The position numbers were made by a program, and so were the translations under genes. A stretch of 64,000 nucleotides of DNA from an uncultured Bacilli bacterium (GTDB taxonomy: Bacteria; Bacillota_I; Bacilli_A; RF39; UBA660), in assembly GCA_947629025.1 (NCBI GenBank), contig CANRCC010000004.1, positions 3,300-67,299 of the forward strand. The letters run 5' to 3'. Below the pieces are notes generated by a model. The model was not told where the DNA came from. It saw only the letters and a program-made list of their open reading frames with translations, and searched no databases. Every line of letters starts with the position of its first letter. The first letter of the stretch is position 1. This document shows positions 18,589 through 64,000 of this stretch, piece after piece.

Positions 18589-18626
18589 GAGAGTAAGAAT
18601 TTAATAGTTACTTACTCTTTTTTATT
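18589..18626 (+). terminator. Intrinsic terminator, last plus-strand unit before the strand switch
   Basis: Stem gagtaag/cttactc (18591-18597 / 18611-18617) followed by ttttttatttt. Confidence 0.6.
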
Positions 18627-18984
18627 TTATATAAATATATATAGTAAATAATTATATATAATAACTTAAAAATTTATTAATAATATATTCTAATGTAATG
18701 ATATAGTGTATTAAATTTAATTAAATTAAATGAATTTTATAATACTTAAATTTATTTTAACTCCCCCTACTTACTTACAATTAATATTTATATGTGTATA
18801 TACGTATACATAGTTAAATTAAATATAAATAACGTATGATGGATGATAGATAATAGATAATAAATAATAGGTAAATAAGTATATTTATATTATTAAAATA
18901 AAATATATAAATATAAGATTTAATTAATTTATAGATAATTTTTATAATTTAATTTTAATTATTATTTATATATAAAAAGAGTAA

Positions 18985-19046
18985 TAAATAAAAAAACTAT
19001 TTATATAAATGTATTATACTTAATTCTAATACATATATAAATAGTT
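18985..19046 (-). terminator. Intrinsic terminator of the XRE-family gene
   Basis: Inverted repeat ctatttatataaatgtatta (18997-19016) / taatacatatataaatag (19027-19044). On the minus strand a U run follows it (plus-strand A run ending at 18996). Confidence 0.6.
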
Positions 19047-19065
19047 ATTATTTATCAAATATATA

Positions 19066-19093
19066 ATTTCATATAATAATTATTATGTAAACT
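19066..19093. other. dif: Candidate dif site (XerC/XerD chromosome dimer resolution site)
   Basis: ATTTCATATAA-TAATTA-TTATGTAAACT. The right arm is identical to the B. subtilis dif XerD arm as I recall it (ACTTCCTAGAA-TATATA-TTATGTAAACT), and ATTATGTAAACT is an exact 12-nt match. The left arm matches 8/11, and the two arms form an 8/11 imperfect inverted repeat. It sits exactly at the gene-orientation switch. Confidence 0.6.
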
Positions 19094-19106
19094 AATGATT
19101 ATTATT

Positions 19107-19868
19107 CTAAATCTTTCTAGATTGTATTTCGGCCATCTTTTCTACTACTTCTGGATAATTAGTTTCATTTATTTCAGTATATCCTAACTCTTTTAATGCT
19201 TGAATCTTAGCTGAATTTATTTCTTGAGTTCTTGATAATTTTTCTTCTTGTTTTTTATTTATATCACTAACAAATTTCTTATGTAGTTCTTGTATTTTAT
19301 TTTCAGATGCACTACCACTTGTATAAAGTACCATTGCAGAATATAGTATTGTTTCAAATGTAAATTGATTATCTTTTTCAAATACATACTCATCTACATC
19401 AACAAATCCTGTAGTTTTAGCTACATATCCAAGCATATATTTAATTTCTTTAATGTTATCCATTGCTTGAAGAAAATAGCATAAATATTTACATATATTA
19501 CTACCCTCCCCGCTTTCATCATCTTCTAATCTTTCTTTTAATATAAATATAATATCATTTAATAATTCTTGATCAGATCCTTTTAGTCCTGAGAAGTTAA
19601 TACTCCCCTTTTCTATCATAATATCATTTTCATTTATTAAATTATTTGCATGTTTTATAAATTCACTATCAATTACAATATTTTCAATATCATCAGCTGA
19701 TTTTACTTGTAACAAATTAAATAGTTTCATTTTCTTTTCTAGTGGCCATGAATTTACATCATCCATTTCTAAATAGTTATATACCATTTGTCTTGATACA
19801 CCTAAATATTTAGCAAGTTTAACTTTTGATATACCTATTTCTCCTAAAATTTCATTTAATTTTTTCAT
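19107..19868 (-). CDS. XRE-family helix-turn-helix protein with unknown C-terminal domain
   Basis: 253 aa. N-terminal HTH LGEIGISKVKLAKYLGVSRQMVYNYL. It has its own promoter, RBS (AGGAGTAGGAGA) and terminator. Confidence 0.75.
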   Translation of the reverse strand: MKKLNEILGEIGISKVKLAKYLGVSRQMVYNYLEMDDVNSWPLEKKMKLFNLLQVKSADDIENIVIDSEFIKHANNLINENDIMIEKGSINFSGLKGSDQELLNDIIFILKERLEDDESGEGSNICKYLCYFLQAMDNIKEIKYMLGYVAKTTGFVDVDEYVFEKDNQFTFETILYSAMVLYTSGSASENKIQELHKKFVSDINKKQEEKLSRTQEINSAKIQALKELGYTEINETNYPEVVEKMAEIQSRKI

Positions 19869-19968: not shown

Positions 19969-22509
19969 TTACAATTTATATTTACTTTTTATTTGATTTT
20001 TTACTCTATTAAATTCAAATTCATCTTTTAAATTACATGTTGGAAGCATTACTTCATCAATAGTACCATCATTTCTAACTGCTATATACCAATTATTATT
20101 AGATACAATATACTTGTAATCTTCTAGTTTTATAGGCTCAAATTCTTTTTTTAACTCTTTTCTTAGTATTGGATCATCTTCTAATTCTACTCTAAGTGCT
20201 TTAATTTTATTTAATTCTTCTTCTGTTCTATTAGTTCTTATATCATTTTCTTTTTCATCATAATATGTTCTAATAGGTTCAAAATAATTAACATATTTTA
20301 ATAAATAATCTTCATTTAATCTTTTAATTCTATCACTTGTATTAATTAAATATAAATTATCACTTATATCTGAATGCGGACATATTCTAATAGGTCTTTG
20401 ATCTTTATAACAAGGATAATTTTTAAATAAACCAGTTGATTCTCCTGATACAAATACAAAATCAATATTATCATTTTTTTGTTTTGCTTTCTTTATAATT
20501 TGACTTGATATATCACTAAGAAATTTATCATTTAATATTTCTGATTTATTATAATATTTTGTTACAGTAGGTGCTAGTATTACTGCATTACCTCTTCTAA
20601 ACATAATAGTTCTTGCGACTAAATCATTATTTTTATCTTTTATTAATATTACATCTGTATTTTTATCAAGCATTGTATTTTTAAAAGTTTCTCTACCAGC
20701 AAGATTGTCTAATTTAATACAGCTTTCAGGTTGTACATATCCAATAAGTAATTTATCTTCATCTTGAAAATTACCAGATTCATATGTATACTCACATACT
20801 CTTCCTTTTACTTTTGGAATAGTACTTGAATTTCTAGTATATGCTTTTAAATATATATTTAAGTAGTCATTAACATTTGTATCACCAATTTCATCAATTG
20901 TTTTTTGTGATAGTATATACTTTGCATAATCGTTAACTAAGGAATATTTTTTACTAAGTGTAATTAAAGTATCAATATTATCATAAACATAATTAATAGT
21001 ATCATCATAATTACAATTTATTTGATTAGCTATTTTATCATAATAAACTAAAATATTTATAAAATCATTAGTAGTAAAATCATCCATTAAATTAGCAAAA
21101 TATAAAAGAGTTGCGACTTTTCTTATTACAAGTAATTCATTTTCTTCTATTTTTTCAATTCTATCATCTGTAATACTAATAATTACATCAGCAATATTAT
21201 CACATATTCTATTTTTATCTATTATTTTATAATTATTGTAATTATAATCAATTTTTTCTTTATTTTGGTTTAATATCTGTAAATCATTACCATATATATC
21301 AATATTATCAATATATTTCATTTTAAATTTAGTATATTTATTTTGAATTATTTTACTTATTTCATAATTATTTATTCTAGTATTTATTGATTCTATATCA
21401 ATTGTTCCATCTTTAATAAATATATTTTCAAAAAATTCAAAATCATCATCAGTAATAGTAACTTGTGATCTTCTTATATCTTTTATACTTCTAATATAAT
21501 CTCTTAAATTAAATAAATCATTTAACATTTCTTCTTTTGATGTATTAATATTTTGATATAAACCATCTCTTATTATTTCTTCTACTTTTTTAATTTTAAT
21601 TCCTCTTATTATTGAATCAGTCTTTTTATTTGATAAAATTAATCTACTTTTTACTTGCTTCATTAAGAATTTTTTATATTCATTTTCTATTTTATTTTCT
21701 ATATCATTAAGTAATTCATTATAAAAACCACTTGATTCATTAAATGTTAATTTATTATTTAAGAATAAATCATATAACCTAGTTAACTCTTTTTTTATAT
21801 AATCCATACTGATATATTCTTTTTTGATAGTATCACCAGTACCATTTACATATCTATATATCTTTCTTGAAAGATCATCACAGCTATGATATCTTCTAAA
21901 ATATTCTTTAATAAAACTATCAATTTTATCTACACTATTTAGAGCAATATTTTCTTTTTGAATATTATAATATTTTTTACATAATTTATTGATAATTTTT
22001 TCTAATAAGTAACTATATTTTTCTTGATCATTAATATTATCTTCATCTAAAGATAAATTTAAAAGATTAAGTAATTCTTTTTTCTTATCATCTATATATA
22101 ATTCATCTACTCTTCCATTATATATATATTTACTTAATATTTCTTTTTTTAATTGTTTAATATATCTTTCATCAGATTTTATAAGTAATATTAGTGGAGG
22201 GTCATTATTTATAATATAATTAATAATTGATTCAAATTTATATAAAAAATTATTACTTATAATATCTTCTTTATTTGGTTTATATCCCCTACTTAATGCA
22301 TCTAAACAAAGTTCATTAGTTAGATCTTCTTCTTTAAATAATGTAATAACATTTGGATCATATGCGAATGCTAATGAAATAAACCAATCATAATTTAATA
22401 GTTCATCATTATCAATTATATCTTCTTTAGATGGTATATAACCATTTAAAATTGCGTTTCTTACTGTTTCATAATCTATATTATCTATAGAAAATGGTAA
22501 TTTATTCAT
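19969..22509 (-). CDS. Large hypothetical protein (846 aa from ATG 22509)
   Basis: Uninterrupted 2.5-kb ORF. ATG 22509 is preferred over GTG 22518 because AGGAAAG lies upstream, and it is 21 nt after the mnmA stop. The N-terminus carries a duplicated motif (NGYIPSKEDIIDNDELL / RGYKPNKEDIISNNFLY). No recognisable catalytic motif. Confidence 0.7.
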   Translation of the reverse strand: MNKLPFSIDNIDYETVRNAILNGYIPSKEDIIDNDELLNYDWFISLAFAYDPNVITLFKEEDLTNELCLDALSRGYKPNKEDIISNNFLYKFESIINYIINNDPPLILLIKSDERYIKQLKKEILSKYIYNGRVDELYIDDKKKELLNLLNLSLDEDNINDQEKYSYLLEKIINKLCKKYYNIQKENIALNSVDKIDSFIKEYFRRYHSCDDLSRKIYRYVNGTGDTIKKEYISMDYIKKELTRLYDLFLNNKLTFNESSGFYNELLNDIENKIENEYKKFLMKQVKSRLILSNKKTDSIIRGIKIKKVEEIIRDGLYQNINTSKEEMLNDLFNLRDYIRSIKDIRRSQVTITDDDFEFFENIFIKDGTIDIESINTRINNYEISKIIQNKYTKFKMKYIDNIDIYGNDLQILNQNKEKIDYNYNNYKIIDKNRICDNIADVIISITDDRIEKIEENELLVIRKVATLLYFANLMDDFTTNDFINILVYYDKIANQINCNYDDTINYVYDNIDTLITLSKKYSLVNDYAKYILSQKTIDEIGDTNVNDYLNIYLKAYTRNSSTIPKVKGRVCEYTYESGNFQDEDKLLIGYVQPESCIKLDNLAGRETFKNTMLDKNTDVILIKDKNNDLVARTIMFRRGNAVILAPTVTKYYNKSEILNDKFLSDISSQIIKKAKQKNDNIDFVFVSGESTGLFKNYPCYKDQRPIRICPHSDISDNLYLINTSDRIKRLNEDYLLKYVNYFEPIRTYYDEKENDIRTNRTEEELNKIKALRVELEDDPILRKELKKEFEPIKLEDYKYIVSNNNWYIAVRNDGTIDEVMLPTCNLKDEFEFNRVKNQIKSKYKL

Positions 22510-22530
22510 TATTATCACTTTCCTTTTTTA

Positions 22531-24353: not shown

Positions 24354-25202
24354 TTATTTAACTAATTCTATTTGTTCTATTGGAATATTTGTTATTTCAG
24401 ATATTAGATTTATATCCATCTTTCTGTTAAGCATATTTCTTATTATTTCATTTTCTTTTCTTGTGATTCCTATTTGTATTCCTTTTTTAATACCCTCATT
24501 TTCTCCTTCTTCTTTCGCACATATCAAATATAACTCTTCTTTACTATATGATAGTAAATTTCTTTTATCATTGCTTAATTTTATTAACTCATCATATATT
24601 CTTTCCATTAATTCATCACCCCTTGATAAATTATATAATTCTTTCTTATTGACTAATTTTAACATTAAAAATATTTTTTCCATCCTTGTTAACTTTTCTT
24701 TATTATAATACTTTTTATAAATTACTTCAAGGTTAACATGATATTTTTTTATAAAACTTTTATCTACTATTCCTTTTTCACTTTTTAATTCAAATTTTAC
24801 TATCTCTCCCTCTTCTTTATATAATGTATAATTATCTATATTTATTTGTATTACTATTTTATCTTCATATAAACTTTGTATCTTTGTTATATATGAATTA
24901 TTTTTCTTTATTATCTTTTTATAATACTTTTTATTCATTTCTATATTTATTATTTTATTTTCTATTTCTATTACTAAATCACTTATTTTTCCTTTTTCTT
25001 CTATATTTTCTTTGGGCAATTCATTTGATATTATTTTCATCTCTCTTAAATCTTCCATTTTTATATCTTCTACTACATACACTATTACCTCTTTTACTAA
25101 TTTATCTATAGTGGTGAATAATTTTTTAAATATTGTATCTGACGTTCCTGGAATTATTTCTCTTTTTCTTCTTTCCAAATCGTCAATATATGTTTTTATC
25201 AA
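24354..25202 (-). CDS. Rpn/YhgA-like PD-(D/E)XK nuclease (putative transposase family)
   Basis: N-terminal GTSDTIFKKLF motif, nuclease-core-like DLVIEIENKIINIEMNK, and a C-terminal helical tail (IKKGIQIGITRKENEIIRNMLNRKMDINLISEITNIPIEQIE) typical of the family. TTG 25202 is preferred over GTG 25229 because AGGAGG lies 7 nt upstream. Confidence 0.65.
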   Translation of the reverse strand: MIKTYIDDLERRKREIIPGTSDTIFKKLFTTIDKLVKEVIVYVVEDIKMEDLREMKIISNELPKENIEEKGKISDLVIEIENKIINIEMNKKYYKKIIKKNNSYITKIQSLYEDKIVIQINIDNYTLYKEEGEIVKFELKSEKGIVDKSFIKKYHVNLEVIYKKYYNKEKLTRMEKIFLMLKLVNKKELYNLSRGDELMERIYDELIKLSNDKRNLLSYSKEELYLICAKEEGENEGIKKGIQIGITRKENEIIRNMLNRKMDINLISEITNIPIEQIELVK

Positions 25203-25251
25203 TCTACCACCTCCTATAATATATTTCACTACTTACTTATTATTTTCCCCT

Positions 25252-34925: not shown

Positions 34926-34997
34926 TTTTCTTCACTCCTAGAAACAAATAAATTATATCAAATTTATTATATATTTTCAATTAAAAAAGCAATATTG

Positions 34998-37322
34998 TTA
35001 TTTATTATTACTTTTTTTATTTTTAAGTTCTTTTATAAATACATATTGCATTAAAGATACACCTATTAATAGTAATGAAAGAGCTATAACTAAATCATTA
35101 TTTACTTTAAATAACTGAATAATAATATTTATTATAAGTACAATACTTCCATAATATACAAATTGTTTTCTATTTATACTCATACCAGTTAGAATAAATA
35201 TTAATGATACTATTAAAAAGTATATTAGAATAACTATATTAGAGTTTAGTATAAAACTTAATGTTACATATGTCATCCATAGTATTTCAAATAATATTTT
35301 ATCTTTTTTTCTAATAGTTAATACTTTTTCTAAAATAATAAATATATATATAGTAATTAAAGTTATTAATATTAAATTACTATATAATACACTAATTTCA
35401 TTAATTAAAATTGATAAAGGATAATATAAGTATATTATATAAGACATAATCCTTTTATCTGAATCTATTTCTGATAAAAACATAGTTATTAATATTATTA
35501 AGATTGCTATAAATGATAATAATGCTGCGACAAATATAGGATTAATTAAACTAAATATTATCTTTGTTATTATATTAAATCCAAGCATAACATATAAAAA
35601 TTTAATACAGAAATTAGTATTTTTCTTTTTAAATGAAATAGTATATATGATTATATATAACAATAAATTTAGTAATAAGAATAATATATTATATTTATTA
35701 AAATCAAATAATGAAGCAATTATTAATAATACAACAGAAAATAAATATAGTGCTCGTTTATTATTAAACATACTAGAAATTAATAATATAAGTGATAAAG
35801 TAATAATTGTATAATAAAATTTAATATTAAAGTTAGCGCAAACAAGTACTAAATTTATTAATGATAAAGTAAATAAGTAATTTTGAAATGTTTTGTTTTT
35901 ATCAAAGAATGATTTTACTATATAATAATAAATCCATAATACTTCTACTAATATAGATGCTAATTTATCAAAATTTAATATTGATGTTATCATTGCAAAT
36001 AATAAGAATAAATAAGAAAACCATTCATATATAGTAGATATTTTATTTTTTCTAATCATTAAATATGATGAGATTATAGAATATAATAAACTTGTAAGTA
36101 TTATTATATAAACACTTTTTATTATTATATTTGATAATATTATTGAATTTAAGAATATATATATTAAAACAGGAATTATTATATTAATAATATCTTTAAT
36201 ATTTTTTGATTTTTCTATTTTTACAATAAATATTGATGTAATAATTAATAATAAACTTACTATAGTTGTTACTTTATATTCATATATAATTGAATTTGAG
36301 AATAATAACATAAATGTTATTATTGTAAATATAAGTGTTGAATTTTTTAATTTTTTATTATTAAATAAATAATTAATTACTATTAATAATATTAAAGATA
36401 AACTTAATATATAAATAGACATATTATTATAATTCTTAAATAGTGTTTGTATAAAATTAACTATTGTAATAACTTGAATAAATGGTATTACAAAACTAAA
36501 ATCGCTTTTTTTATAATATAAAATAACTATATAAGAGTTAATTATATATGAAATAAATATAATAATAAGTGTTACTATCATACTGATACTTGCAAATTTT
36601 GAGTATGACATATATGCAAGTACAAATGGTAAATATATAATAAGTGCAAATTTCATATATTTGATAAATATATCTGAAAATTTCTTACCCTTATTTATTA
36701 TTGCTACTACGCTTAATAATAAATTTAATAATATAAGTACCATAAATACTATATCTGCATTATTATTAAAATATTTATCTAAGTTAAATATAAGCATAAT
36801 AGATAGTGCAAGCATATTAATTAGAAAACAAATTATATATAAGTATATATTTGAATTTAAGTACTTATAGCTTAAAAAGTATGCGATTATACATATAATA
36901 ATTAATAATGAAAGATATACATATAATCCTGCTCCATCTAAGAAAAATTTTATAGTTAATTCATATTCATTAATTAATAAAAGTAATATTGGTAGTAAAA
37001 CCATACTAATAAACCAAAAACACTTATGAGATTTTACTAGTCCTAAATTTTTAGAAATAACTGATATACTAATAAATAAGATTATTTCAAATAATATAAA
37101 TATGACTTTAATTATATTACTAAAATCACTTAATACTATAGATGCTAATAATATATTTGCAATTATGATTAAAGAAATACCTAATTCAAATAAACTCTTT
37201 TTATTTTTTTCCTCATTTTCTTTTTTTCTTTTTTCTAATTCTAACTGTGTAGGATTACCACATTTATTACAAAATTTACTTTCTTTTTTTAATTTATTTC
37301 CGCACTTTGTACAATAATTCAT
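34998..37322 (-). CDS. Polytopic membrane protein with N-terminal zinc ribbon
   Basis: 774 aa. CTKCGNKLKKESKFCNKCGN (CxxC-x12-CxxC) and a short KE-rich linker, followed by more than 20 hydrophobic helices. No other motif. Confidence 0.7.
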   Translation of the reverse strand: MNYCTKCGNKLKKESKFCNKCGNPTQLELEKRKKENEEKNKKSLFELGISLIIIANILLASIVLSDFSNIIKVIFILFEIILFISISVISKNLGLVKSHKCFWFISMVLLPILLLLINEYELTIKFFLDGAGLYVYLSLLIIICIIAYFLSYKYLNSNIYLYIICFLINMLALSIMLIFNLDKYFNNNADIVFMVLILLNLLLSVVAIINKGKKFSDIFIKYMKFALIIYLPFVLAYMSYSKFASISMIVTLIIIFISYIINSYIVILYYKKSDFSFVIPFIQVITIVNFIQTLFKNYNNMSIYILSLSLILLIVINYLFNNKKLKNSTLIFTIITFMLLFSNSIIYEYKVTTIVSLLLIITSIFIVKIEKSKNIKDIINIIIPVLIYIFLNSIILSNIIIKSVYIIILTSLLYSIISSYLMIRKNKISTIYEWFSYLFLLFAMITSILNFDKLASILVEVLWIYYYIVKSFFDKNKTFQNYLFTLSLINLVLVCANFNIKFYYTIITLSLILLISSMFNNKRALYLFSVVLLIIASLFDFNKYNILFLLLNLLLYIIIYTISFKKKNTNFCIKFLYVMLGFNIITKIIFSLINPIFVAALLSFIAILIILITMFLSEIDSDKRIMSYIIYLYYPLSILINEISVLYSNLILITLITIYIFIILEKVLTIRKKDKILFEILWMTYVTLSFILNSNIVILIYFLIVSLIFILTGMSINRKQFVYYGSIVLIINIIIQLFKVNNDLVIALSLLLIGVSLMQYVFIKELKNKKSNNK

Positions 37323-37453
37323 AAATTCACCTTCATTTTATTTAATTATAAAATAAATTTATTAAAATTAAAAGACTTTTAATAAATTATATATTAATAA
37401 TTCATATAATCAGATATTTTTTTAAGTAATAGTTTCTTTTCTTCATCAGATTT

Positions 37454-38995
37454 TTATTTTTCTTCATAAGATAATTTTTTACTAATTCTATCATTTTTAA
37501 TTGTAAATAATTCATCATGTATTTTAGCAAATAACATTATTTCTTGCATTTCTTCACAATTTAAACTTTTATTTTCTTTTCTATATTTAAAGAATTTTGA
37601 ATTTTGGCTTCTAAACCAGTTAAACATAAATGTACCATCAGTAAATCTTATATTATCTACATCAGCAACATTTCTTTTTAATATTCGTATTTGTGATATA
37701 TATTCATAAACCCTATTTTCATATAATTGAATTGATGAAAATTTTTTCTTTTCTTGCTCTTTTCTTTTTTTAATATCATATAATTCATTATCTATATTAG
37801 CAAATAACTGAATTTCAGATAATCTTCTATTACTTAATCTAGCATTATTTTGTATTTCTCTTTTTATTTTATTATTATTACTTTTATAAAAGTCGTACAT
37901 ATATTGACCATCATTAAATTTATTTGTATCTCTTAATATTATATTTCTATTTTTCTTTTTAATTGTTTTTATATATTCATTTACCTTATTTTCATATTCA
38001 ATAAATTTTAATTCAAATAACTTATCTTCTATTTTAGAAAACATCATTATTTCTTCTAATCTTTTACTATCAGGTATTCTTTTTGCTAATTTTTCATTTG
38101 TTAATTTTTTACATTCAAATTTATACCACAAATACATGTCAGTACCATCAGTAAATTTTATATCATCTTCATCATTAACATTTCTTCTTAATTTTTCTAT
38201 AACATTAATATATTCTAAGACCTTTTTTTCATATATCTGTATTTGTGTTGGTCTTTTATCTTTATTTTTTTCATCTACTCTATTTTTAATATCATATAGT
38301 TCATTATCTATATTAGCAAATAACTGAATTTCAGCTAATCTTCTTTTACCTAATTTAGCATTATTTTCTATTTCTTTTTTTATTTTATTATTATTGTGTT
38401 TATAAAAATCATACATATACTTACCATCACTAAACTTATCGCCATCTCTATGTCTTATATTTTGCTTCTTTTCTCTTATTGTTTTTATATATTCATTTAT
38501 TTTATTTTCATATTTAGTAAATTCTAATTCAAGTAATCTATCATCTATTTTAGAAAACATCATTATTTCTTCTAATCTTTTACTATTAGGAATCTTATTT
38601 ACTTCTCTTTCATATGATAATCTACTATTTTGATCTTTATACCACAAATACATATCAGTATCATCATTAAAAAAATATGTATTTTCTTTATCTATGTTAC
38701 TACCTAATTCTTTTATTTTTATTAAATATTGATTAACTTTTTTCCTATATTCATTTAATTCAGATTTTATAAGAATATTATCTACTCTTTCAAATATTTT
38801 TTTTAGCATATATTCTTCTTTACTTAATTGTTCTTCTTTTAGGCTATTTAACTGCCATTTTTGTTTTGCTATCCAACTATGCATATCTGTTTTATCACTA
38901 AATTTAATATTATCTGAAGCAGTAATATTTCTTCTTAAACGAATAATTGCTCTAACATATTCTTTTATTTTTTGATTAGTTGAAAGATTTTTCAT
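37454..38995 (-). CDS. HA (helicase-associated)-like repeat protein, 6 repeats
   Basis: 513 aa made of six ~75-85-aa units of the type YE.KV.EYI..I..L.RNV...D..F.DG.DMY.WY....RLEEIMMFSKID..L.E. RBS AAGGGGGG. Paralogous to the two upstream genes. Confidence 0.75.
   Translation of the reverse strand: MKNLSTNQKIKEYVRAIIRLRRNITASDNIKFSDKTDMHSWIAKQKWQLNSLKEEQLSKEEYMLKKIFERVDNILIKSELNEYRKKVNQYLIKIKELGSNIDKENTYFFNDDTDMYLWYKDQNSRLSYEREVNKIPNSKRLEEIMMFSKIDDRLLELEFTKYENKINEYIKTIREKKQNIRHRDGDKFSDGKYMYDFYKHNNNKIKKEIENNAKLGKRRLAEIQLFANIDNELYDIKNRVDEKNKDKRPTQIQIYEKKVLEYINVIEKLRRNVNDEDDIKFTDGTDMYLWYKFECKKLTNEKLAKRIPDSKRLEEIMMFSKIEDKLFELKFIEYENKVNEYIKTIKKKNRNIILRDTNKFNDGQYMYDFYKSNNNKIKREIQNNARLSNRRLSEIQLFANIDNELYDIKKRKEQEKKKFSSIQLYENRVYEYISQIRILKRNVADVDNIRFTDGTFMFNWFRSQNSKFFKYRKENKSLNCEEMQEIMLFAKIHDELFTIKNDRISKKLSYEEK
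37760..38683 (-). repeat. Internal two-repeat block duplication, 516-nt offset
   Basis: aa ~105-240 and ~277-412 of the 513-aa protein are near-identical. Matching DNA blocks (e.g. 38276-38683 versus 37760-38167) share long identical runs. Confidence 0.75.
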
Positions 38996-39020
38996 ATTAT
39001 CTTACCCCCCTTTTATTATA

Positions 39021-40226
39021 TTATTTTAAATTTTTTATTGTATCATCTATCTTTTTAAACATTTTTATTTCTTCTTTTCTCTTACTACTTAACTCTATAT
39101 TATCTTCTATTTCTTTTTCTTGTTTTTTCTTTTCATTGTAATACCATAATGCCATATTAACTCCATCACAAAATTTATATTCTTCTCTAGTTTTAATATT
39201 TCTATTAAGTTCTAATATCTTATCAATATATTGATCTATTCTATCAAAAATTTTATTCTTTTTAATATCGAATAAAGTATTTAATATTCTTGAAAATAGC
39301 ATAGCTTTTTGCATTGCTTCTTCATTTAACATTCTTTTTGTTAAGTTATAATATTCACTTTTATACCATAAATACATATTTGTGCCATCTTCAAATTCAA
39401 AGTCTTCATCCTCTTTTATATTTCTTTTTAATTCTTGTATAACATCAATATATTCTAAAACTCTTTTTTCATATTGACCTACTCTTTTACTTATACTTTC
39501 TTTTGTATTCAATTCATATATAGTATCATCTATTTTTGCCAAAAGCATCATTTCACTAAGTCTTGATGGTTTTGGTTTTTTATTTGTTAACTTATCTTTT
39601 TCTAATTTTAAATTTTGATAAGCATACCAACCTGCCATATCAATCCCATCATTAAATCTATTATTTACTTTCATATTTTGATTTTCATATTTTTGCATTA
39701 ACATATTTATGTATTGATTTACTCTATCATTTAATTTTTCATAGTAAGTTTCATATAAAGCATCATATATTTTTGCTAAATACATTAATTTTATCATTTC
39801 ATCTTCTTTTGGTTTTCTATTTTCTTTTTTTATATTATAGGCTAGTTCATTTTGCTTTGAAATCCAAACATACATATCAGTACCATCACTAAATAATTCA
39901 AAATCTTCTTTTGTAATATTTCTATTTAATAATTTAATTCTTTTAATATACTCATTTGTCTTTTTTCTAAATTCATTTAATTCAGATTTTATAAGTATTT
40001 TATCTACTCTTTTGAAAAAATCTATTGTATCTTGTTGTTTTTTTGTTAATTTTTCTTTTTTTAAATAAATCTTTATTAGATTTCTTTTATGTGATAACCA
40101 GCGATACATACAACTACCATCACTAAATTTTTGATATCCTTTTGCTTTTATTTGGCATCTTGTTTTCATTAATTCTTTAACATATTCTTTTTCTCTAGTG
40201 TAATTAGTATTATTTTCAGTAATCAT
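39021..40226 (-). CDS. HA-like repeat protein, 5 repeats
   Basis: 401 aa with the same repeat architecture (e.g. FSDGTDMYVWISKQ.., FNDGIDMAGWYAYQ.., FEDGTNMYLWYKSE.., FCDGVNMALWYYNE..). It starts 18 nt after the upstream paralogue. Confidence 0.75.
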   Translation of the reverse strand: MITENNTNYTREKEYVKELMKTRCQIKAKGYQKFSDGSCMYRWLSHKRNLIKIYLKKEKLTKKQQDTIDFFKRVDKILIKSELNEFRKKTNEYIKRIKLLNRNITKEDFELFSDGTDMYVWISKQNELAYNIKKENRKPKEDEMIKLMYLAKIYDALYETYYEKLNDRVNQYINMLMQKYENQNMKVNNRFNDGIDMAGWYAYQNLKLEKDKLTNKKPKPSRLSEMMLLAKIDDTIYELNTKESISKRVGQYEKRVLEYIDVIQELKRNIKEDEDFEFEDGTNMYLWYKSEYYNLTKRMLNEEAMQKAMLFSRILNTLFDIKKNKIFDRIDQYIDKILELNRNIKTREEYKFCDGVNMALWYYNEKKKQEKEIEDNIELSSKRKEEIKMFKKIDDTIKNLK

Positions 40227-40244
40227 ATTATCACTTTCTTTCTT

Positions 40245-41297
40245 TTATTTTCTCTTCATTTTTAAATCGTGTAAAGTGTCATCTATTTTAGAAAACATCA
40301 TTATTTCTTCTAATCTTTCTTCACTAGGTATAATATGTTTTTTATATTCATTTCTTAATTTATCTGATTCTTTTTTATACCAATAATAAAAATTAATGTT
40401 ATCACTAAAAGCATACTTTTCACTACAACTTATATTTCTACCTAACTTTTTTACTTTTTTTCTATAACTATTTACTTTTTTTGAATAATCATTAAACTTA
40501 CATTTTTCTAATATTCTATCTATTCTTTTAAATAAATCAATTTCTTGTTTTATTTGTTCATCTAATCCTGTATATTTCCTTAATTTAAGTCTTTCTTCAT
40601 CTAGCCAAACTTTCATTGATGTGCCATCAGTAAACCTAAAATTGTCTTTTTTAGTTATATTTCTTCTTAAAGCTATTATTTTATTAACATATTCTTTCAT
40701 CCTACTATAAAAAATAATTTGCTTTGATGATTTTTTATTTTCAAATAAAGCATCTTCAATTTTAGCAAATAACATTATTTCTTCTAATCTATCATCATCT
40801 ATTTTTATGTTATTTTTTCTTTCTTGTATTATTTTAAATGAATTATTTCCATACCAATTATACATATTAAGTCCATCTTTAAAAGTAAATTTATCAGTTG
40901 GTCTTACATTTCTACCTAACTTTTTTATCATATTTATATATTGATATGCTTTTATTTTAAATACATTATTTAATTCATATAATGTATAATCTATTTTAGA
41001 AAACATCATTATTTCTTCTAATCTTTCTTTAGTTAAAGTTTTATTTTCTTTTACTTCACGCATTATTTTTTTACTTTCATTACAATACCAGTCATACATT
41101 TTAACGTTATCGTTAAATAAGAATTTGTCTTTTTCATTAATATCTCTTTTTATTTTATTTATTTTATTAACATACTCTATTACGCGTTCTTCATATGATA
41201 AAGGTTTTATTTTAATAAGCTCTTTATAATTTTCAGATTTTTTTCTTATTTCTTGTAATTTTTCTATTTGTCTTCTTTGTTTTTCTAAATTTTGCAT
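40245..41297 (-). CDS. HA-like repeat protein, 4 repeats
   Basis: 350 aa. A short N-terminal coiled segment is followed by four repeats (FNDNVKMYDWYCNE.., FKDGLNMYNWYGNN.., FTDGTSMKVWLDEE.., FSDNINFYYWYKKE..). RBS AAAAGGGGGA. Confidence 0.75.
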   Translation of the reverse strand: MQNLEKQRRQIEKLQEIRKKSENYKELIKIKPLSYEERVIEYVNKINKIKRDINEKDKFLFNDNVKMYDWYCNESKKIMREVKENKTLTKERLEEIMMFSKIDYTLYELNNVFKIKAYQYINMIKKLGRNVRPTDKFTFKDGLNMYNWYGNNSFKIIQERKNNIKIDDDRLEEIMLFAKIEDALFENKKSSKQIIFYSRMKEYVNKIIALRRNITKKDNFRFTDGTSMKVWLDEERLKLRKYTGLDEQIKQEIDLFKRIDRILEKCKFNDYSKKVNSYRKKVKKLGRNISCSEKYAFSDNINFYYWYKKESDKLRNEYKKHIIPSEERLEEIMMFSKIDDTLHDLKMKRK

Positions 41298-41380
41298 ATC
41301 AAAAAAAATCCCCCTTTTTTAATGCCTTATATAATATCACAATTTCATTATAAAAGCAAATTTATAAAAGGAGATTTTTA

Positions 41381-43936
41381 TTAATTTAATTTTTCTTTTA
41401 ATAAATTTAAATTTGTTTCTTCATTCTTTAATTTTGTTTTTTCTTCTTCTACTAAATTACTAGGGGCATTTTTAATATATCCCGCATTTGATAATAATTT
41501 TTTTCTTCTTTGAATTGAATTTTCTAGTTTTTCTATTTCTTTTTTAATTTCATTAAGTTTATTTTCTTCATCCTCTTTTGATATTTTATAGTAATATGTT
41601 AATTTACATTCTAAAATATCTGTTTTTGATTCAATTACAAGCTCATTATAACTATTTGTATCTTCTATTTTGTTTTCTATAGTTAGTTTTAATATATTTT
41701 TTATTAAGTTTGATGCATCTTCATTATTACATATAAAATCATATTTATCATCTTTTTTAATATTGTTATCTTTCTTTATAGTTCTTGATTTTGTTATAAA
41801 GTTTCTAATTTCATCCATTAAAGAAAGTGTATCAATGTAATTATTATCTTTATTTTCTTTTGGATAAGTAGATATCATAATGCTTTCTTCTTCTTTTATG
41901 CTTAATTTACTATATATTTCTTCTGTTACAAATGGCATAAATGGATGAAGTAATTTAAGTATATTAGTTAATACATATAAAAGAGTTGATTTAGTTGATA
42001 TATTATCCATATTAAATTTTGAATATTCTATATAAGCATCACAAAAGTCATCCCAAATAAATGAATAAAGAATAGAACCTACATTATTAAATTCATATTT
42101 ATCCATATATTTTCTTGTATCTTTTATTGTAATATTTAATTTAGTTAATATCCATTTATCACTAAATGTTAAATTAGAAAAATCAAATTCTTTTATATTT
42201 TCTGTATTCATTAATACAAATCTAGATGCATTCCATATTTTATTTATAAAATTCCAAGTTGATTTTACTTTTTCTTCATCAAATCTTAAATCTTGTCCTA
42301 GTGCTGTATTAGTTGTTAAGAAGAATCTAAGTGCATCACATCCATATTTATCTATCATATCTATAGGATCAATACCATTACCTAATGATTTACTCATTTT
42401 TCTTCCATCTTTATCTCTAATTAATCCATGAGATAAACAAGTTTTAAATGGTGCTTTGCCTGTAAATTCTAATCCTTGAAATGCCATTCTTGCTATCCAA
42501 AAGAATATTATGTCATATGCAGTTACAAGTACATCTGTTGGATAATATTTTTTATATAAATCTGTATTATCAGGCCATCCTAAAGTACTAAATGGCCAAA
42601 GTGCTGATGAAAACCAAGTATCAAGTACATCATTATCTTGAACCCAACCATCTCCAGGTGATGTTTCTTGTACTTTAATTTCATCATCTTTATACCATGC
42701 AGGAATTCTAATTCCCCACCAAAGTTGTCTTGATATACACCAGTCATGGCAGTCACTCATCCAATTATTTAATATTTTTTCAAATCTTTTTGGAACAAAA
42801 TGAATTTTATTTTTTGTTTTTTGATTATCTAAAACGCCTTTAGCAAGAGGCTCCATTTTAACAAACCATTGTTTTGAAATATATGGTTCTACCATAACTC
42901 CTGTTCTTTCAGAGTGTCCTACACTATGAGTTATTTTTTCAATATTAATTAGTAAATCTTTTTCTTTTAAAAGTTCAACTAATTTTTCTCTTGCAGTAAA
43001 TCTATCTAATCCTTTAAGCATTAGTGCATTTTCATTCATATGCGCTGTTTCATCCATTATAATTATTCTATCTAAATTATGTCTATTACCTACCTCAAAG
43101 TCATTTGGATCATGTGCAGGTGTTATTTTAACTACACCTGTACCTTTTTCCATATCAGCATGCATATCTCCTATTATAGGTATTAATCTATTTACAATAG
43201 GAAGTATTACATTTTTACCAATTAGTTTATTATATCTTTCGTCTTTTGGATTTACAGCAACAGCAGTATCACCAAATAATGTTTCAGGACGAGTTGTTGC
43301 TACATCTAAATAATCATTTGTACCCTCTATAAAGTATTTTAAATGATAAAATGCACCTTCAATATCCTTATATATAACCTCTTCATTAGAAAGAGCAGTT
43401 CTTGCTTCTGGATCCCAGTTAATTATTTTTTCACCCTTATATATAAGTCCATCATTATACATTTTTATAAATGCATAATTTACTGCTTTTGTTGAAACCT
43501 CATCTAGTGTAAATCTTTCTCTTGTATAATCTAAACTTATTCCCATTTTGGCCCACTGACTTCTTATATTTTGTGCATATTTATCTTTCCATTCCCATGC
43601 TTCTTTTAAGAAACCATCTCTACCTAATTCATATTTATTTATTCCCTCTTCTTTTAATTTAGCAACTACTTTTGCTTCTGTTGCAATTGCAGCATGATCT
43701 GTTCCAGGAATCCATAATACGTCAAATCCATCCATTCTTTTATATCTTGAAAGTATATCTTGAATAGTAACATTCCATGCATGACCTAAATGAAGTTTAT
43801 TTGTTACATTTGGTGGTGGCAAAACCATTGAAAATTTTTCTCTATCATCATTTTTTGCTTCAAAATAACCTTTTTTAAGCCAATAATTATATTTACCTTC
43901 TTCTACTTTTTTATGATCATATTTTGTATCTAACAT
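41381..43936 (-). CDS. valS: Valine--tRNA ligase
   Basis: HIGH-type motif (LHLGHAW), KMSKS (RKMSKSLGN) and a C-terminal coiled coil. The true start is ATG 43936 ([10 protein letters not shown]) after RBS GAAAGGAAG. The track's 21-codon N-terminal extension reads through the T-box terminator. Confidence 0.95.
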
Positions 43937-43955: not shown

Positions 43956-44158
43956 AAAAAAATTCTATAATCTAAGGACGCATATAAGCGCGGTACCACC
44001 TTAGTTCATAGAATTCTATGCTCTTAAACTCTTAACGCGAGATATACGAATAAGCGATTTTAAGCAACATTCAAATACATATTTTATTAGTTTTCACCAG
44101 CCACTAACTCTCTTTTGAAAATATAATATTTTACTCCTCTTAAAACATTGCTTTTAAC
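43956..44158 (-). promoter_or_regulatory. T-box riboswitch leader of valS
   Basis: On the minus strand: stem I elements AGAGAG..GGTGAAA (rc of 44090-44115), and Val codons GUA (44076-44078) and GUU (44066-44068) in the specifier region. The T-box sequence GGTGGTACCGCG (rc of 43989-44000) overlaps the 5' arm of a terminator (ttctatgaactaagg / ccttagattatagaa, 43963-44013) followed by U7. Confidence 0.85.
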
Positions 44159-44164
44159 AAAATA

Positions 44165-44193
44165 ATTATATATTTATAAATAATCTTTGTCAA
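44165..44193 (-). promoter_or_regulatory. Consensus sigma-A promoter of the valS leader
   Basis: On the minus strand: TTGACA (44188-44193), 17 nt spacer, then TATAAT (44165-44170). Confidence 0.7.
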
Positions 44194-44202
44194 TATTAAT
44201 AA

Positions 44203-46191
44203 TTACTTTTTAGATTTTTCTTTGTTAATTGAATTGATCTGCATTTGCATTTCTTTTAATATATTATTTTTACCATCTACATAATATTCAAAATCTTTAT
44301 CTTTTACTTTTAAAAATCTATCTGTTGTTAATACAAAGTCTAAATCATTGTTTTCATATAAAAATTTATTCTTTTTATCATTTAGATTAACATAATAGAC
44401 CTTTATATTGTTATTTATATATTCATTTATATAAGTATAATATGTATTTTTTTCATTATTATTTTTCTTATATAATAATACATAATATTCACTACTATCT
44501 TGATTATATATATCAGTTGCATTTATCTCAGTAAATAAATCTTTATTAGTTATTTTTGAACCAACAAAACTACTTTTTACTACATTATTATCTTTTATTA
44601 AATTTGGATCATATAAAAATACTATCCAAGATATTAATAAGCAAATAAATATGAAAAATAGAAATACTAATATATAAGAAAACTTAAATATATGTTTTTT
44701 TTCTTTAGTAACTATATTTTCTTGCTTTTCTTTCTTTTGATTTTTATCTTTAGTAGATACTTTTTCTTTCTTTTTCTTTTTATTTTTCTTTTCTTGTTCT
44801 TTTAATAATTTCTCTTCTTGTTTTCTTTTTTCTTCTTGTTCTTTTCTTAGTTTTTCTTCTTTCTTTCTTTTTTCTTCTTTTGACTTAATTATATCATTTT
44901 TAATTTGATCTAATAATTTATTAATTACATCTTCTATATTTTCTTTTTCATCTACTTTTGAATATATTAATCTTTTATGATCAAAGGCAATTAGTGATGG
45001 TGCATCATCATTAATATATCCTCCTGATATTCCTATAAATTCTTTTTTTTCTTCTACAAGTGAATATTTATTTAAACCTGCTTGATTAATTAAATAATTT
45101 GTTACAAAATCTGATGTTCTATTATCATATACATAAGTATAATTAAACTTAAATATATAATATTTATATCCTTCTACTACTCTTTCATCATAGTATTTAT
45201 ATCCTTCTAAATCTTCTTTATATTTTGTTTGCATCATAAAGTTTATATAGAAATCTGATTTTGCGATCATCTTACCAGTCATATATCTTTTTGGTATTAA
45301 ATTTTCCATACCGTATATACTAAGCATATCAAATAACGGATATCTACTAGATTCATCTTTTGCAAGCATATTTAGATTTAATTTTGATATATCCATATCT
45401 TTTCTAATAAAATTTTCTAATATAAATAATGAAAGCTGAGTATCTTTTCTTTTAAATAATTTATTAAGTATTTCTTTTGTTCTTTTATTTGATACATAAC
45501 TTTCTATATTAATAGATATTTCTAAAAAGAATCTAAGATCAAAATATTCTTCTGTTCTTAATGCTTCATCAGTATTTTTAAATTTGAATTGTAAAGCTTT
45601 ATCAAATAATCTAATTATACTATCTTGTATTATTTTTTTATTCTTTTTTAAATCTTCTTCTTTTACTACACCAGCATTTAGATAATCATTAAGTATTATT
45701 AATATATTATTTCTAACATAACTAAATTTTAATGCTTTATATAATTTAGGAAATAATATATCGTATAAATATGGTCTTTCAAATAAATTACTTATTGGTA
45801 TAAAAATACTTTCTTTATAATATTTTAAAACTAAATCTACATATAATTCAAGGGAACTTTTATTATCAATACTTGATAAAAGAAATATAACTCTATTTTG
45901 TGCATCTTCATTTAAGTATTTAAATATCTTTTCAATTGCTACTGAATATTCATCATAGTATTCTTTAAAGCATAATGAAATCAAAGAAGAACTAATTCCT
46001 CCATATCCATCTTCTACTTTATAATCATAGTTTGCTGCTTCAATTAAAAGTAATCCAATATCTTTAGTTATTTGCATTTTTTCTAATTTTTGAAATGCAA
46101 TTGTTTTTTCTCTAATGTCTTTTTTTTGCATTATTTCAATTAAATTAGCAACCTTTTTCAATTTTAAATCTTCTATAAATTCTCTTATCAT
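44203..46191 (-). CDS. Hypothetical tripartite membrane protein
   Basis: ATG 46191 is preferred because GAGGGGA lies upstream. A ~440-aa cytoplasmic domain is followed by a KE-rich low-complexity linker (KEEKRKKEEKLRKEQEEKRKQEEK..), one TM helix and a ~140-aa C-terminal extracytoplasmic domain. No recognised motif. Confidence 0.65.
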   Translation of the reverse strand: MIREFIEDLKLKKVANLIEIMQKKDIREKTIAFQKLEKMQITKDIGLLLIEAANYDYKVEDGYGGISSSLISLCFKEYYDEYSVAIEKIFKYLNEDAQNRVIFLLSSIDNKSSLELYVDLVLKYYKESIFIPISNLFERPYLYDILFPKLYKALKFSYVRNNILIILNDYLNAGVVKEEDLKKNKKIIQDSIIRLFDKALQFKFKNTDEALRTEEYFDLRFFLEISINIESYVSNKRTKEILNKLFKRKDTQLSLFILENFIRKDMDISKLNLNMLAKDESSRYPLFDMLSIYGMENLIPKRYMTGKMIAKSDFYINFMMQTKYKEDLEGYKYYDERVVEGYKYYIFKFNYTYVYDNRTSDFVTNYLINQAGLNKYSLVEEKKEFIGISGGYINDDAPSLIAFDHKRLIYSKVDEKENIEDVINKLLDQIKNDIIKSKEEKRKKEEKLRKEQEEKRKQEEKLLKEQEKKNKKKKKEKVSTKDKNQKKEKQENIVTKEKKHIFKFSYILVFLFFIFICLLISWIVFLYDPNLIKDNNVVKSSFVGSKITNKDLFTEINATDIYNQDSSEYYVLLYKKNNNEKNTYYTYINEYINNNIKVYYVNLNDKKNKFLYENNDLDFVLTTDRFLKVKDKDFEYYVDGKNNILKEMQMQINSINKEKSKK

Positions 46192-46252
46192 AAAATCCCC
46201 TCTTAATACCACTTATTGTATTATAACAAATTAAATTAAAAAAAAGAAGAAA

Positions 46253-62185: not shown

Positions 62186-62719
62186 ATGAATTTAAAAATA
62201 ATTAAAATATTAAGCATATTTGTAATATTTTTATTAGGTTTTATTACACACTTCATATATGATATTTTTCCAAATACAATAACATCTTTCTTTTTTCCAG
62301 TAAATGAATCTATATTTGAACATTTAAAAATAATATATGTTAGCTATTTATTATGGGCATTAATTGAATATTTTTTATTAAAAAAAGAAAATTATTTAAA
62401 AAATTTCCCATCATCTTTATTTTTATCAATAATATTTAATATGATTATATTACTAGCAATATATATACCTATTTATAATACTTTTGGTCATAATATATAT
62501 ATAACATTACTAATTTATCTTATATCAATAGCAATTTCTCAAATAATTAGTTATTATATTTTAAAATCTAATAAAGATTTTAAGTTTTTAAATAAATATG
62601 CTTATATATTTTTATTAATACTTATAATGGTTCTTATTTACCTTACTTATTATCCACCAAATATAGATATATTTATTGATAAAATGAATAATAAAAAAGG
62701 ACTAAATAATATTTATTAG
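62186..62719 (+). CDS. Hypothetical polytopic membrane protein
   Basis: 177 aa with about 5 TM helices and RBS AGAAAGGAA. Convergent with the downstream surface protein gene. Confidence 0.6.
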   Translation: MNLKIIKILSIFVIFLLGFITHFIYDIFPNTITSFFFPVNESIFEHLKIIYVSYLLWALIEYFLLKKENYLKNFPSSLFLSIIFNMIILLAIYIPIYNTFGHNIYITLLIYLISIAISQIISYYILKSNKDFKFLNKYAYIFLLILIMVLIYLTYYPPNIDIFIDKMNNKKGLNNIY

Positions 62720-62727
62720 TCCTTTTT
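62695..62727. terminator. Bidirectional intrinsic terminator between convergent genes
   Basis: Stem aaaaggactaa/ttagtcctttt (about 62695-62726) with flanking A and T runs. Both stop codons (62717-62719 on + and 62716-62718 on -) lie inside it. Confidence 0.65.
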
Positions 62728-64000
62728 CTTTTTTTCTACTTTTTCTTCTTTTTTATCTGATTTTTCTACAGTTTTATCTTTTATCTTCTTTGTATCTATT
62801 TGTATTGTGTCTGATAATGTATCTATTGTTTCTGGTTTTTCTATTTTTTGTTTCTTTTTAAATATTTTCTTTAATACTTCTTTTTTACATAGGAAGAATC
62901 CAAGTACAATACCAAGTGTAAATGTTACAAGCATACATACTGAAAATATTATCCATTCTCTTGAACTTGTTACATCTGGACAAGTTTGAACTATTTTCTT
63001 TTCTTCTTTTTCTCTTGTTACAGTAATAACATATGTTTCAGTATTTTGTGTATCTTCACTAGTTACTGTTATTTTAATTGTATTTTTACCTACTTTGAAA
63101 TTTTTATTTCCATCTATTTCAATAGTAGCATTTGGATTTTCTGCTTCTGTTTTTATACTTAATTTTTTTACTTTATATGGTACTGATAAAGTAAATTTCT
63201 TTTGTCCCTCAGAAAAATCAATATCATAATCTTTAACTTCAATATTTTTAAGAACAGTACTTGCTTTTAATTTTTCTTCTTCTGTTGGAGTCATGGTTAA
63301 ATTTACTTTAATTGTATAAGTTTTAGTTGCTGCTCCATTTTCTGCGGTTACTGATATTTTAATGATATTTTCTCCTTTAACAAGATTTTTATAGTTATCT
63401 GATATCATTATTTTAGCATTTGAATCAGTAGCAGCAGCATTTATTGTTATTTCAGTAATATCTTTTATATCTGCTGAATATTCAGTTACATTTTTATCAA
63501 ATTTTGGAGTCAATGTAGTATTTGGTATTTTAAGTGAACTTAAACTTGCATCTGTTCCAAGAGCATTTATATTAATCATTGAACTTATATTTGTTATATT
63601 TTTTGCATCTACTGGACCAGTAAGTGCATTTACTCCAGAACTAGTTAATGTAAGATTAGTACTTCCTGCTTGTGCATTTGACTTTACTCCAAATACTATG
63701 GTTGCTAATGTTTCATTATTACTTATTGTTGAAACATTACCCTTAGTTATAACTATTGGATTTACTGGGTTAATATTTGAGTTTTCAGAAGTTGATGATT
63801 TATACTCTAATTTTGATGAATCATATTGAAGATTAACAGTATAAGCATTTAAAGAATCTTCTCTTATACCTTCAGCTTTTATATAAACAGTAACCTCTCC
63901 TCCAGGTTTAACAGTATCTGGTGATCTATCCATTCTAAATGTTAATGCATAAGTATTTTTTGGAATCATAATCATTAAAAATGCAAAAAATATAAAATGC
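62716..64000 (-). CDS. Surface protein: cohesin-like domain plus two cadherin-like beta-sandwich domains, C-terminal TM anchor; 5' end outside window
   Basis: The frame stays open upstream of the ATG at 63975 (..HFIFFAFLMIMIPKNTYA looks like a signal peptide), so the start is beyond base 64000. There are two copies of the L..L...L.P.F....EY...V......I.A.....A....G.N.I.I.VTAE.G....Y.I.V pattern, then TM helix WIIFSVCMLVTFTLGIVLGFFLC and a K-rich tail. Confidence 0.7.
   Translation of the reverse strand, partial: HFIFFAFLMIMIPKNTYALTFRMDRSPDTVKPGGEVTVYIKAEGIREDSLNAYTVNLQYDSSKLEYKSSTSENSNINPVNPIVITKGNVSTISNNETLATIVFGVKSNAQAGSTNLTLTSSGVNALTGPVDAKNITNISSMININALGTDASLSSLKIPNTTLTPKFDKNVTEYSADIKDITEITINAAATDSNAKIMISDNYKNLVKGENIIKISVTAENGAATKTYTIKVNLTMTPTEEEKLKASTVLKNIEVKDYDIDFSEGQKKFTLSVPYKVKKLSIKTEAENPNATIEIDGNKNFKVGKNTIKITVTSEDTQNTETYVITVTREKEEKKIVQTCPDVTSSREWIIFSVCMLVTFTLGIVLGFFLCKKEVLKKIFKKKQKIEKPETIDTLSDTIQIDTKKIKDKTVEKSDKKEEKVEKKKKD

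Follow-up and report, generated by a model that had tools for sequence, protein, structure and literature searches.

The helicase-associated (HA) domain, PF03457, is widespread, and to our knowledge hardly any function has been established for it by experiment; it is unrelated to the HA2 domain of DEAH helicases. In canonical proteins, HA units form C-terminal arrays on superfamily 2 (SF2) helicases and on nucleases; the proteins known to carry such arrays include ResIII/Helicase_C helicases, Mrr and PLD nucleases, and TniQ. For the one HA domain with a solved structure, 2KTA, the title of Mills et al. (2013), which is cited in PMC12191111, speaks of DNA binding; PMC12191111 also describes HA domains joined to PLD defence nucleases. 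Here, we analyzed a 64,000-nucleotide (nt) stretch of DNA (contig CANRCC010000004.1; hereafter, the window), which belongs to the core chromosome of an uncultured lineage of gut Bacilli with ~22% GC. Three adjacent minus-strand genes in the window, A350, B401, and C513 (together, the trio), encode proteins built of HA-like units with no helicase attached. What is new at this locus is a divergent HA subfamily with autonomous, multi-gene, helicase-free arrays.

A350 (350 amino acids (aa); 40245-41297, minus strand) is an open reading frame (ORF) whose translation starts with a 33-aa N-terminal helix and continues with four HA-like units (aa 34-111, 112-194, 195-269, and 270-350); its Shine-Dalgarno (SD) sequence, AAGGGGGA, lies at 41309-41316. 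B401 (401 aa; 39021-40226, minus strand) contains five units (aa 7-84, 85-163, 164-250, 251-324, and 325-401), and C513 (513 aa; 37454-38995, minus strand) contains six (aa 5-81, 82-160, 161-253, 254-332, 333-423, and 424-513). The ORF map bears out the original prediction, made from the DNA letters alone, of three co-oriented ORFs of 350, 401, and 513 aa with gaps of 18 nt (A350/B401) and 25 nt (B401/C513), and a purine-rich SD is situated 6-9 nt upstream of the ATG in all three genes. The trio region has 20% GC and a stop probability of 0.117 per codon, which gives a probability of ~1e-28 for 513 open codons and of ~1e-19 to 1e-28 for the 350-513-codon ORFs of the trio. The longest ORF across 500 shuffles was 202 aa; hence, the trio ORFs are far beyond chance.

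A scan with the motif [FY]-x-[DN]-[GDNK]-x-x-[MFI]-x-x-[WF] gave exactly 4 + 5 + 6 = 15 cores in the trio, in agreement with the 4, 5, and 6 copies of a single unit that had been proposed. Cut at these cores, the 15 units are 74-93 aa long and align end to end with pairwise identities of 15-67%. Their consensus, x-Y-x-x-K-V-x-E-Y-I-x-x-I-x-x-L-x-R-N-I-x3-D-x3-F-x-D-G-x-x-M-Y-x-W-Y ... R-L-x-E-I-M-x-F-x-K-I-D-D-x-L, is essentially the one given by the original prediction. Units 2-3 and 4-5 of C513 form a duplicated pair, in which the third and fifth units are 67% identical. A hidden Markov model (HMM) of the unit matches the trio ORFs with E-values of 1e-111 to 3e-171, and no other ORF in the window matches it better than E 0.1. 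The proteins are indeed as rich in Lys and Arg as had been claimed (21-24%), with a net charge of +16 to +26 and isoelectric points of 9.2-9.6. The maximum of the Kyte-Doolittle profile over a 19-residue window is ≤0.5, so that the trio is without a transmembrane (TM) segment or signal peptide, and scans of Pfam, NCBIfam, PHROGs, and PADLOC returned zero domains; the description as tandem paralogues lacking catalytic, TM, and signal segments thus holds.

The relation to HA emerges from profile comparisons. A profile of the 15 trio units was searched with HMMER against 1.84 billion representative proteins (50% identity clusters, E ≤ 1e-3) and matched 94 clusters. The best ~40 of the 94 matches carry no Pfam domain and are pure arrays of 1-15 units, while the weaker 47 include 10 SF2 helicases (ResIII + Helicase_C) and 6 proteins that pass or approach the Pfam HA model, whose gathering threshold is 28.4 bits. 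Four of the proteins retrieved are Pfam-positive for HA: the helicase P0024 (trio profile E 1e-28, Pfam HA 72 bits), P0041 (E 6e-14, 46.6 bits), P0058 (E 2e-7, 584 bits with E 9e-180), and P0082 (E 5e-5), in which Mrr_cat and a helicase accompany HA (167 bits). In such bridging proteins, the trio HMM and an independent HA HMM derived from P0058 mark identical periodic segments with coinciding domain coordinates. In hhalign, 64 family units aligned with 11 canonical HA units of P0058 at a probability of 92% (E 6.3e-7) and a score of 33.2, as against 8.2 for the reversed HA profile and ≤14.6 for 100 column shuffles; the 15 window units alone still gave a probability of 78% (E 1.9e-5). The alignment is in register, with R-N-[IV] on G-N-[LV], F-x-D-G-x-x-M-x-x-W on D-G-x-x-L-G-x-W, and L-x-x-R on L-x-x-E-R. 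Furthermore, among all window ORFs of at least 30 aa in six frames, an HMM built only from the canonical HA units of P0058 places the trio at ranks 1-3 (B401, E 6e-5).

Because of the profile search, the shared segments, the in-register hhalign alignment, and this ranking, the trio unit is assigned as a divergent HA homologue that is invisible to the curated model, an assignment that is partly supported; by PF03457 itself, it is not a member. The HA-like assignment of the original prediction accordingly survives as divergent homology in the profile searches and hhalign, but neither the curated PF03457 model nor a Foldseek comparison with 2KTA recovers it. P0058 was also considered as a true stand-alone array of canonical HA units and was rejected, as its N-terminal ~370 aa align to helicases over 85-98% of their length. 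The matches of the trio and family profiles to sequences in the Protein Data Bank (PDB), such as the rotavirus NSP4 coiled coil and the foamy-virus envelope glycoprotein gp130, are at chance level only.

The AlphaFold2 (AF2) model of a single unit, computed from the 64-unit alignment, has a predicted local distance difference test score (pLDDT) of 97.3 and a predicted template modelling score (pTM) of 0.85. It contains helices at residues 2-16, 34-50, and 57-78 and a β-bridge between residues 27 and 33 in the loop that carries F-x-D-G, and helix 2 of the ~79-aa unit opens with M-Y-x-W-Y. The full-length model of A350 repeats the pattern of helix, β-bridge loop, helix, and helix four times with a pLDDT of 84 but a pTM of 0.39, which indicates that the units are well defined while their mutual arrangement is not. 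The stacked three-helix units suggested earlier are therefore seen in part, as a three-helix unit present four times, but the stacking of one unit on the next is undefined. The invariant positions of the unit are core hydrophobics and the D-G turn (Tyr9, Phe28, Asp30, Gly31, Met34, Trp37, Phe66, and Ile69). Conserved basic positions are located on helix 1, the turn, and helix 2 (Lys5, 94%; Arg18, 81%; and Lys44, 59%). High-entropy columns are scattered across all three helices and the loops; such widely scattered variability indicates that the arrays are not TALE-like. Foldseek was run with full-length A350 and the single-unit model against the PDB, and with the single-unit model also against BFVD; its generic helical matches (spectrin, Exo70, sigma-70, and 14-3-3), none of them below E 0.6, were set aside as meaningless.

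All sampled loci of the family lie on low-GC metagenome contigs (21-33% GC), and most family members are stand-alone arrays. Tandem paralogues occur at one other family locus (L084). One relative, P0006, contains 15 units in one polypeptide of 1,216 aa and is located downstream of rnr-smpB, between smpB and the tmRNA gene (L082). In L082 (4347-7997 and 8082-8462), P0006 is wedged between smpB and the tmRNA gene, whose tag peptide is GKSIKSTLASLFRVNSVATA; here, too, an insertion parts housekeeping genes that normally lie close together. P0006 was rejected as a fused orthologue of the trio, to which it is only 25-33% identical and not collinear. P0011 sits directly after tex (L085), further members adjoin unrelated genes (PAP2, amidoligase, and ABC transporter), and P0024 lies among ordinary chromosomal genes. 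With A350 as the query, no relative was found in GTDB representative genomes or IMG/VR; relatives of the trio are also absent from INPHARED phages, PLSDB plasmids, and PHROGs. PADLOC-DB yielded zero matches for the trio, P0006, and two neighbouring proteins described below, ZnTM774 and p669, while the helicase core of P0024 matches its models of PbeA and of the type IV restriction endonuclease of methyl-directed restriction. None of the trio family proteins is named in any public source.

Comparison with related genomes shows how the trio came to its position. The nearest reference valS genes reach only 60-69% identity and come from metagenome-assembled genomes (MAGs) labelled Bacilli, Mollicutes, Tenericutes, Erysipelotrichaceae, and 'Clostridium sp. 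CAG:594'; a trio-like ORF was found within 10 kb in 0 of 80 related valS loci. In close relatives (L003, L019, and L002), the order is SNase-p669-valS-[slot]-ZnTM-proS-p160-radC-mreC-mreD-M23, and the slot between valS and ZnTM stands empty in L019, at 67 nt, and in L003 and L002 is occupied by an unrelated membrane-protein gene on the opposite strand. The ZnTM gene of the window, ZnTM774 (34998-37322, minus strand), encodes 774 aa with an N-terminal zinc ribbon followed by ~20 predicted TM helices, has no family assignment beyond the zinc ribbon, and is kept beside valS and proS in related MAGs at 26-29% identity (54% in L083). Since ZnTM and proS stand beside valS in relatives without the trio, both are ancestral neighbours and the trio alone was inserted. 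The original prediction had placed the trio, the membrane protein, and proS together in a break of gene order; this does not stand, as trio-less relatives already carry valS-ZnTM-proS-p160-radC-mreCD. The trio is an accessory, lineage-specific insertion in a variable slot between valS and the conserved ZnTM gene. In L083, a relative closer than the three above, a 36%-identical four-unit gene is situated directly upstream of ZnTM, which makes the insertion older than the species. ZnTM was also considered as a family-wide functional partner of the trio and discarded, for it stands beside valS in trio-less genomes and no homologue lies beside the distant family members; the constant co-occurrence with the zinc-ribbon membrane protein about which the original prediction had asked does not hold.

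The 83-nt spacer between valS and A350 contains a composite RNA hairpin (41298-41385, minus strand, from the valS stop codon to the A350 start). Its 5' arm, AAAAAUCUCCUUUU, pairs with the SD of A350 and a run of eight U residues (AAAAGGGGGAUUUUUU), with an inner hairpin inside. The minimum free energy is -23.4 kcal/mol (z -3.7), and 0 of 200 shuffles were equally stable. Classic terminators occupy the same position in the trio-less relatives. A simple scan found no canonical minus-strand terminator between valS and proS, including the valS-trio spacer; hence, the earlier report of a missing terminator after valS is correct for such a scan but overlooks a stable composite hairpin ending in a U-run. 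The hairpin may serve as a terminator or attenuator of valS and/or as an element that sequesters the SD. Its role is uncertain because strain L089, whose upstream sequence is completely different, lacks the 5' arm. Upstream of valS, we observed a T-box leader (RF00230, 108.9 bits; 43971-44150, minus strand) and, before it, a perfect TTGACA-17-TATAAT promoter match (44165-44193, minus strand); no T-box was detected upstream of proS, which is preceded by a promoter-like site, TTGAAA-17-TG-TATAAT, at 34952-34980. The promoter scan as a whole is uninformative in DNA of 20% GC, with 118 sites against 129 expected.

The near-identical strains L001, L088, and L089 show that the trio changes by loss of units as well as by substitution. 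In L088, the C gene encodes P0109, with 660 aa and eight units, and C513 is a deletion allele of this eight-unit gene: ~370 nt are gone between A/T-rich microhomologies (blastn junction at L088 2286/2645), and a new TAA was created at the junction. The old 3' end of the gene remains as non-coding DNA (37394-37453, minus strand), consisting of its last 19 codons and stop, which read KSDEEKKLLLKKISDYMNY*; translation past the C513 stop matches the P0109 C-terminus, ...YDEEKKQLLKKISDYMNN. The ratio of nonsynonymous to synonymous substitution rates (dN/dS) is 0.38 for C513 (13 synonymous and 26 non-synonymous differences) and 0.60 for A350 (18 and 56), as compared with 0.05 for proS, 0.11-0.15 for ZnTM, and 0.29 for valS. 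It is below 1 for the trio wherever the counts are adequate. The trio genes are under purifying selection that is clearly relaxed or partly diversifying. A350 in L089 is unusually diverged, with 93% nt and 86% aa identity and a synonymous rate of 0.11 against 0.03-0.06 for its neighbours. The gene boundaries of the trio are kept across three strains.

A350 and B401 share a reading frame (40227-40247, minus strand), with a single TAA and five codons between them (…KMKRK*KKESDNMITENN…), and the 18-nt spacing is identical in the window, L001, and L089. This arrangement could be an old nonsense split of a nine-unit gene, or it could offer an opportunity for readthrough. In L089 (positions 1-184; the strain of ERZ27248980), the similarity to the window ends about 40 nt before the A350 orthologue, and the unrelated sequence beyond that point contains an ORF on the opposite strand; either slot content varies between strains, or this 2x-coverage contig is chimeric. 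Truncated, split, or frameshifted copies of B401 occur in some metagenome contigs, which at ~2x coverage could be assembly errors.

We consider the trio proteins to be paralogous, cytoplasmic, non-enzymatic HA-like arrays, most likely engaged in multivalent, non-catalytic nucleic-acid binding, and assign this reading a probability of about 55%. Nucleic-acid binding is inferred from the attachment of HA arrays to DNA motors and to nucleases, together with the cited DNA-binding view of HA, which reportedly rested largely on structural comparison. Each protein is a beads-on-a-string array of a ~79-aa three-helix module, a divergent HA branch whose array may have become independent of the helicase. 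DNA would be a likelier ligand than RNA, presumably contacted through the conserved basic positions of helix 1, the turn, and helix 2, and the proteins might serve as a coat, as a scaffold, or as trans-acting adaptors for substrate recognition. The block as a whole changes fast via point substitution and the gain or loss of whole units.

Several results weigh against this reading. PF03457, the hmmscan comparison proposed with the original prediction, is unmatched in all three trio proteins even at E ≤ 1, and NCBIfam also gave no match. The solved domain 2KTA (BVU_0683 residues 627-691), which the canonical-HA profile retrieves from the PDB, is not retrieved by the family profile in a sequence search of the PDB, and Foldseek of the unit model against the PDB gave nothing below E 2.6 with 2KTA unlisted, although Foldseek is weak on small all-helical domains. 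A helicase or nuclease partner is not encoded in the 64-kb window. The 20% GC of the genome accounts for part of the K/E/N-rich composition of the proteins, and acidic residues are also abundant (16-17%). Finally, the defective B401 copies and the loss of two C units indicate that at least parts of the trio are dispensable.

The genes beside the family raise the idea that RNA is the ligand of the arrays, or that they have a part in translation or in the quality control of RNA, for example, as a chaperone-like protein or a scaffold co-expressed with aminoacyl-tRNA synthetases. The proteins are basic, family members lie directly downstream of valS with its T-box, of rnr-smpB before the tmRNA gene, and of tex, and a simple terminator is missing between valS and the trio. 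However, a stable U-run hairpin does stand at that very place, small genomes dominated by housekeeping and translation genes give such neighbours a high base rate, and other members are found beside PAP2, amidoligase, and ABC transporter genes. Moreover, the 80 related genomes manage without the trio at the locus, and the fused relatives carry DNA enzymes (ResIII, SWI2/SNF2-type, and Mrr/type IV restriction-like modules), so that we regard a role in RNA binding as unlikely, though as the foremost of the alternatives. Next to it, and distinctly unlikely in our view, stands a function as protein-protein scaffolds or structural helical repeats that resemble HA only through a shared three-helix fold. 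The most conserved residues form the hydrophobic core, Foldseek yields only generic helical bundles, spectrin-like and 14-3-3-like ones included, and the full-length pTM of 0.39 suggests the flexible linkers that are typical of scaffolds; yet the HA link lies in the sequence itself and is in register, helicase fusions exist with the same repeat subtype, and a net charge of +16 to +26 does not favour such a role.

Fast evolution, variable copy number, lineage restriction, and a variable slot would also suit a trio that serves phage defence, anti-defence, or a mobile element, for example, by sensing or coating foreign DNA on behalf of a helicase or nuclease whose gene lies elsewhere. The resemblance of the P0024 helicase core to PbeA and type IV methyl-directed restriction helicases, the Mrr nuclease domain of P0082, and the HA fusions to PLD defence nucleases described in PMC12191111 point the same way. 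Against this, the trio is unmatched in PADLOC and PHROGs and has no relatives in IMG/VR, INPHARED phages, or PLSDB plasmids, the window lacks an integrase, recognised defence genes, a helicase, and a nuclease, and P0024 itself resides amid ordinary chromosomal genes; we therefore hold such a role to be improbable. More improbable still is that the trio is a decaying remnant, with little or no present function, of a longer gene, for instance one for a helicase with HA units or one with 15-17 units in a single frame, such as P0006. Such decay would account for A350 and B401 lying in frame across a single TAA, for a C513 that lost two units in the deletion that created its stop codon, for the frameshifted or truncated B401 copies, and for dN/dS values above those of the neighbours, and a 15-unit single-polypeptide relative is known. 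However, ORFs of 350-513 codons persist against the odds of ~1e-19 to 1e-28, an SD and ATG are kept in every trio gene, dN/dS stays below 1 wherever counts are adequate, and gene boundaries are conserved in three strains. Units that are 15-67% identical are old duplicates that have been held open, and a 36%-identical four-unit orthologue occupies the same slot of a more distant relative.

Returning to nucleic-acid binding, a bolder version of it can be formulated, which we regard as a long shot. Stand-alone arrays would be helicase-independent modular nucleic-acid readers in which each unit contacts a defined stretch of DNA or RNA, and the gain, loss, and divergence of units (six versus eight between strains, 2-15 across the family, and tandem paralogues) would retune the target, with coating or sensing of the nucleoid or of foreign DNA in wall-bearing, genome-reduced gut Bacilli as the outcome. 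If true, this would be the first defined autonomous function for the HA domain.

Other features of the window lie outside the trio. Upstream of valS, p669 (44203-46212, minus strand) encodes a 669-aa protein that is 37-43% identical in relatives and belongs to no Pfam family; the protein is lineage-specific, and in it a K/E-rich low-complexity stretch precedes a TM segment. A 6S RNA (RF00013, 48.7 bits, just above the gathering score) is located at 11864-12039 on the plus strand, downstream of aspS. At ~18600-19100, the GC skew changes sign and gene orientation switches convergently from plus to minus, which is consistent with a replication terminus region within the window. Near this putative terminus, three minus-strand ORFs, at 19969-22518 (849 aa), 19107-19868 (253 aa), and 24354-25229 (291 aa), have no Pfam match at E ≤ 1e-5. 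A 419-aa protein (62716-63975, minus strand) contains cohesin and cadherin-like β-sandwich domains, which are unexpected in a small Mollicutes-like genome of gut Bacilli.

The trio locus offers a clean setting in which to ask what HA arrays do alone, as its proteins are small, soluble, and expressible and come in natural variants of four, five, six, and eight units. It also shows that 'dark' lineage-specific genes of uncultured gut Bacilli can be tied to known folds through transitive profile searches, and it documents the turnover of repeat units at the strain level. Should the arrays prove to select what they bind by sequence or structure, they would merit attention as a new modular scaffold; otherwise, they extend a known domain family modestly. 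Homology and dynamics at the locus stand on solid ground, unlike its function, and HA has been little studied more than it has been a puzzle of long standing.

Among known repeat proteins, TALE, PPR, PUF, and mTERF proteins are functional analogies only. They share with the trio tandem helical units, a basic and non-catalytic character, and a variable number of units, and multivalent binding is plausible for the trio, but there is no sequence or structural match, and TALE consists of near-identical units with one hypervariable site, whereas the units of the trio differ widely and their variability is spread. Compared with HA and 2KTA, the trio unit is likewise a short tandem module, its three helices being those of the AF2 prediction, and in hhalign the core corresponds one to one: the aromatic residue of helix 1, the turn [RG]-N-[ILV], the D-G-x-x-[ML]-x-x-W that opens helix 2, a semi-conserved Gln in helix 2, and the L-x-x-[ER]-R that opens helix 3. 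However, the trio unit spans 74-93 aa instead of the canonical ~62-65 aa, the loop between helices 2 and 3 is 5-6 residues longer, helix 3 is longer and runs towards the next unit, and [FL]-[AS]-K-I-[DE] stands where HA ends in L-G-[FM]-x-W. The trio also falls below every Pfam reporting threshold and carries no helicase in the same polypeptide. In the case of the helicase-HA proteins of gut bacteria, such as P0147 ('Helicase associated domain protein [Ruminococcus sp.]') and the divergent-repeat versions P0024/P0114, P0120, P0033, P0090, and P0072, the repeat is of the same subtype as in the trio or an intermediate one, with a periodicity of ~65-72 aa, and the proteins come from similar low-GC gut metagenome samples; P0024 contains 10 units that match trio profile positions ~23-53. 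These proteins possess an N-terminal ResIII/DEAD and Helicase_C motor, sometimes with Mrr, which is found in none of the trio and ~40 related clusters. Since nearly all of the 120 closest relatives of P0058, the canonical-HA protein, are helicase fusions, it is the stand-alone, multi-gene arrangement that distinguishes the trio.

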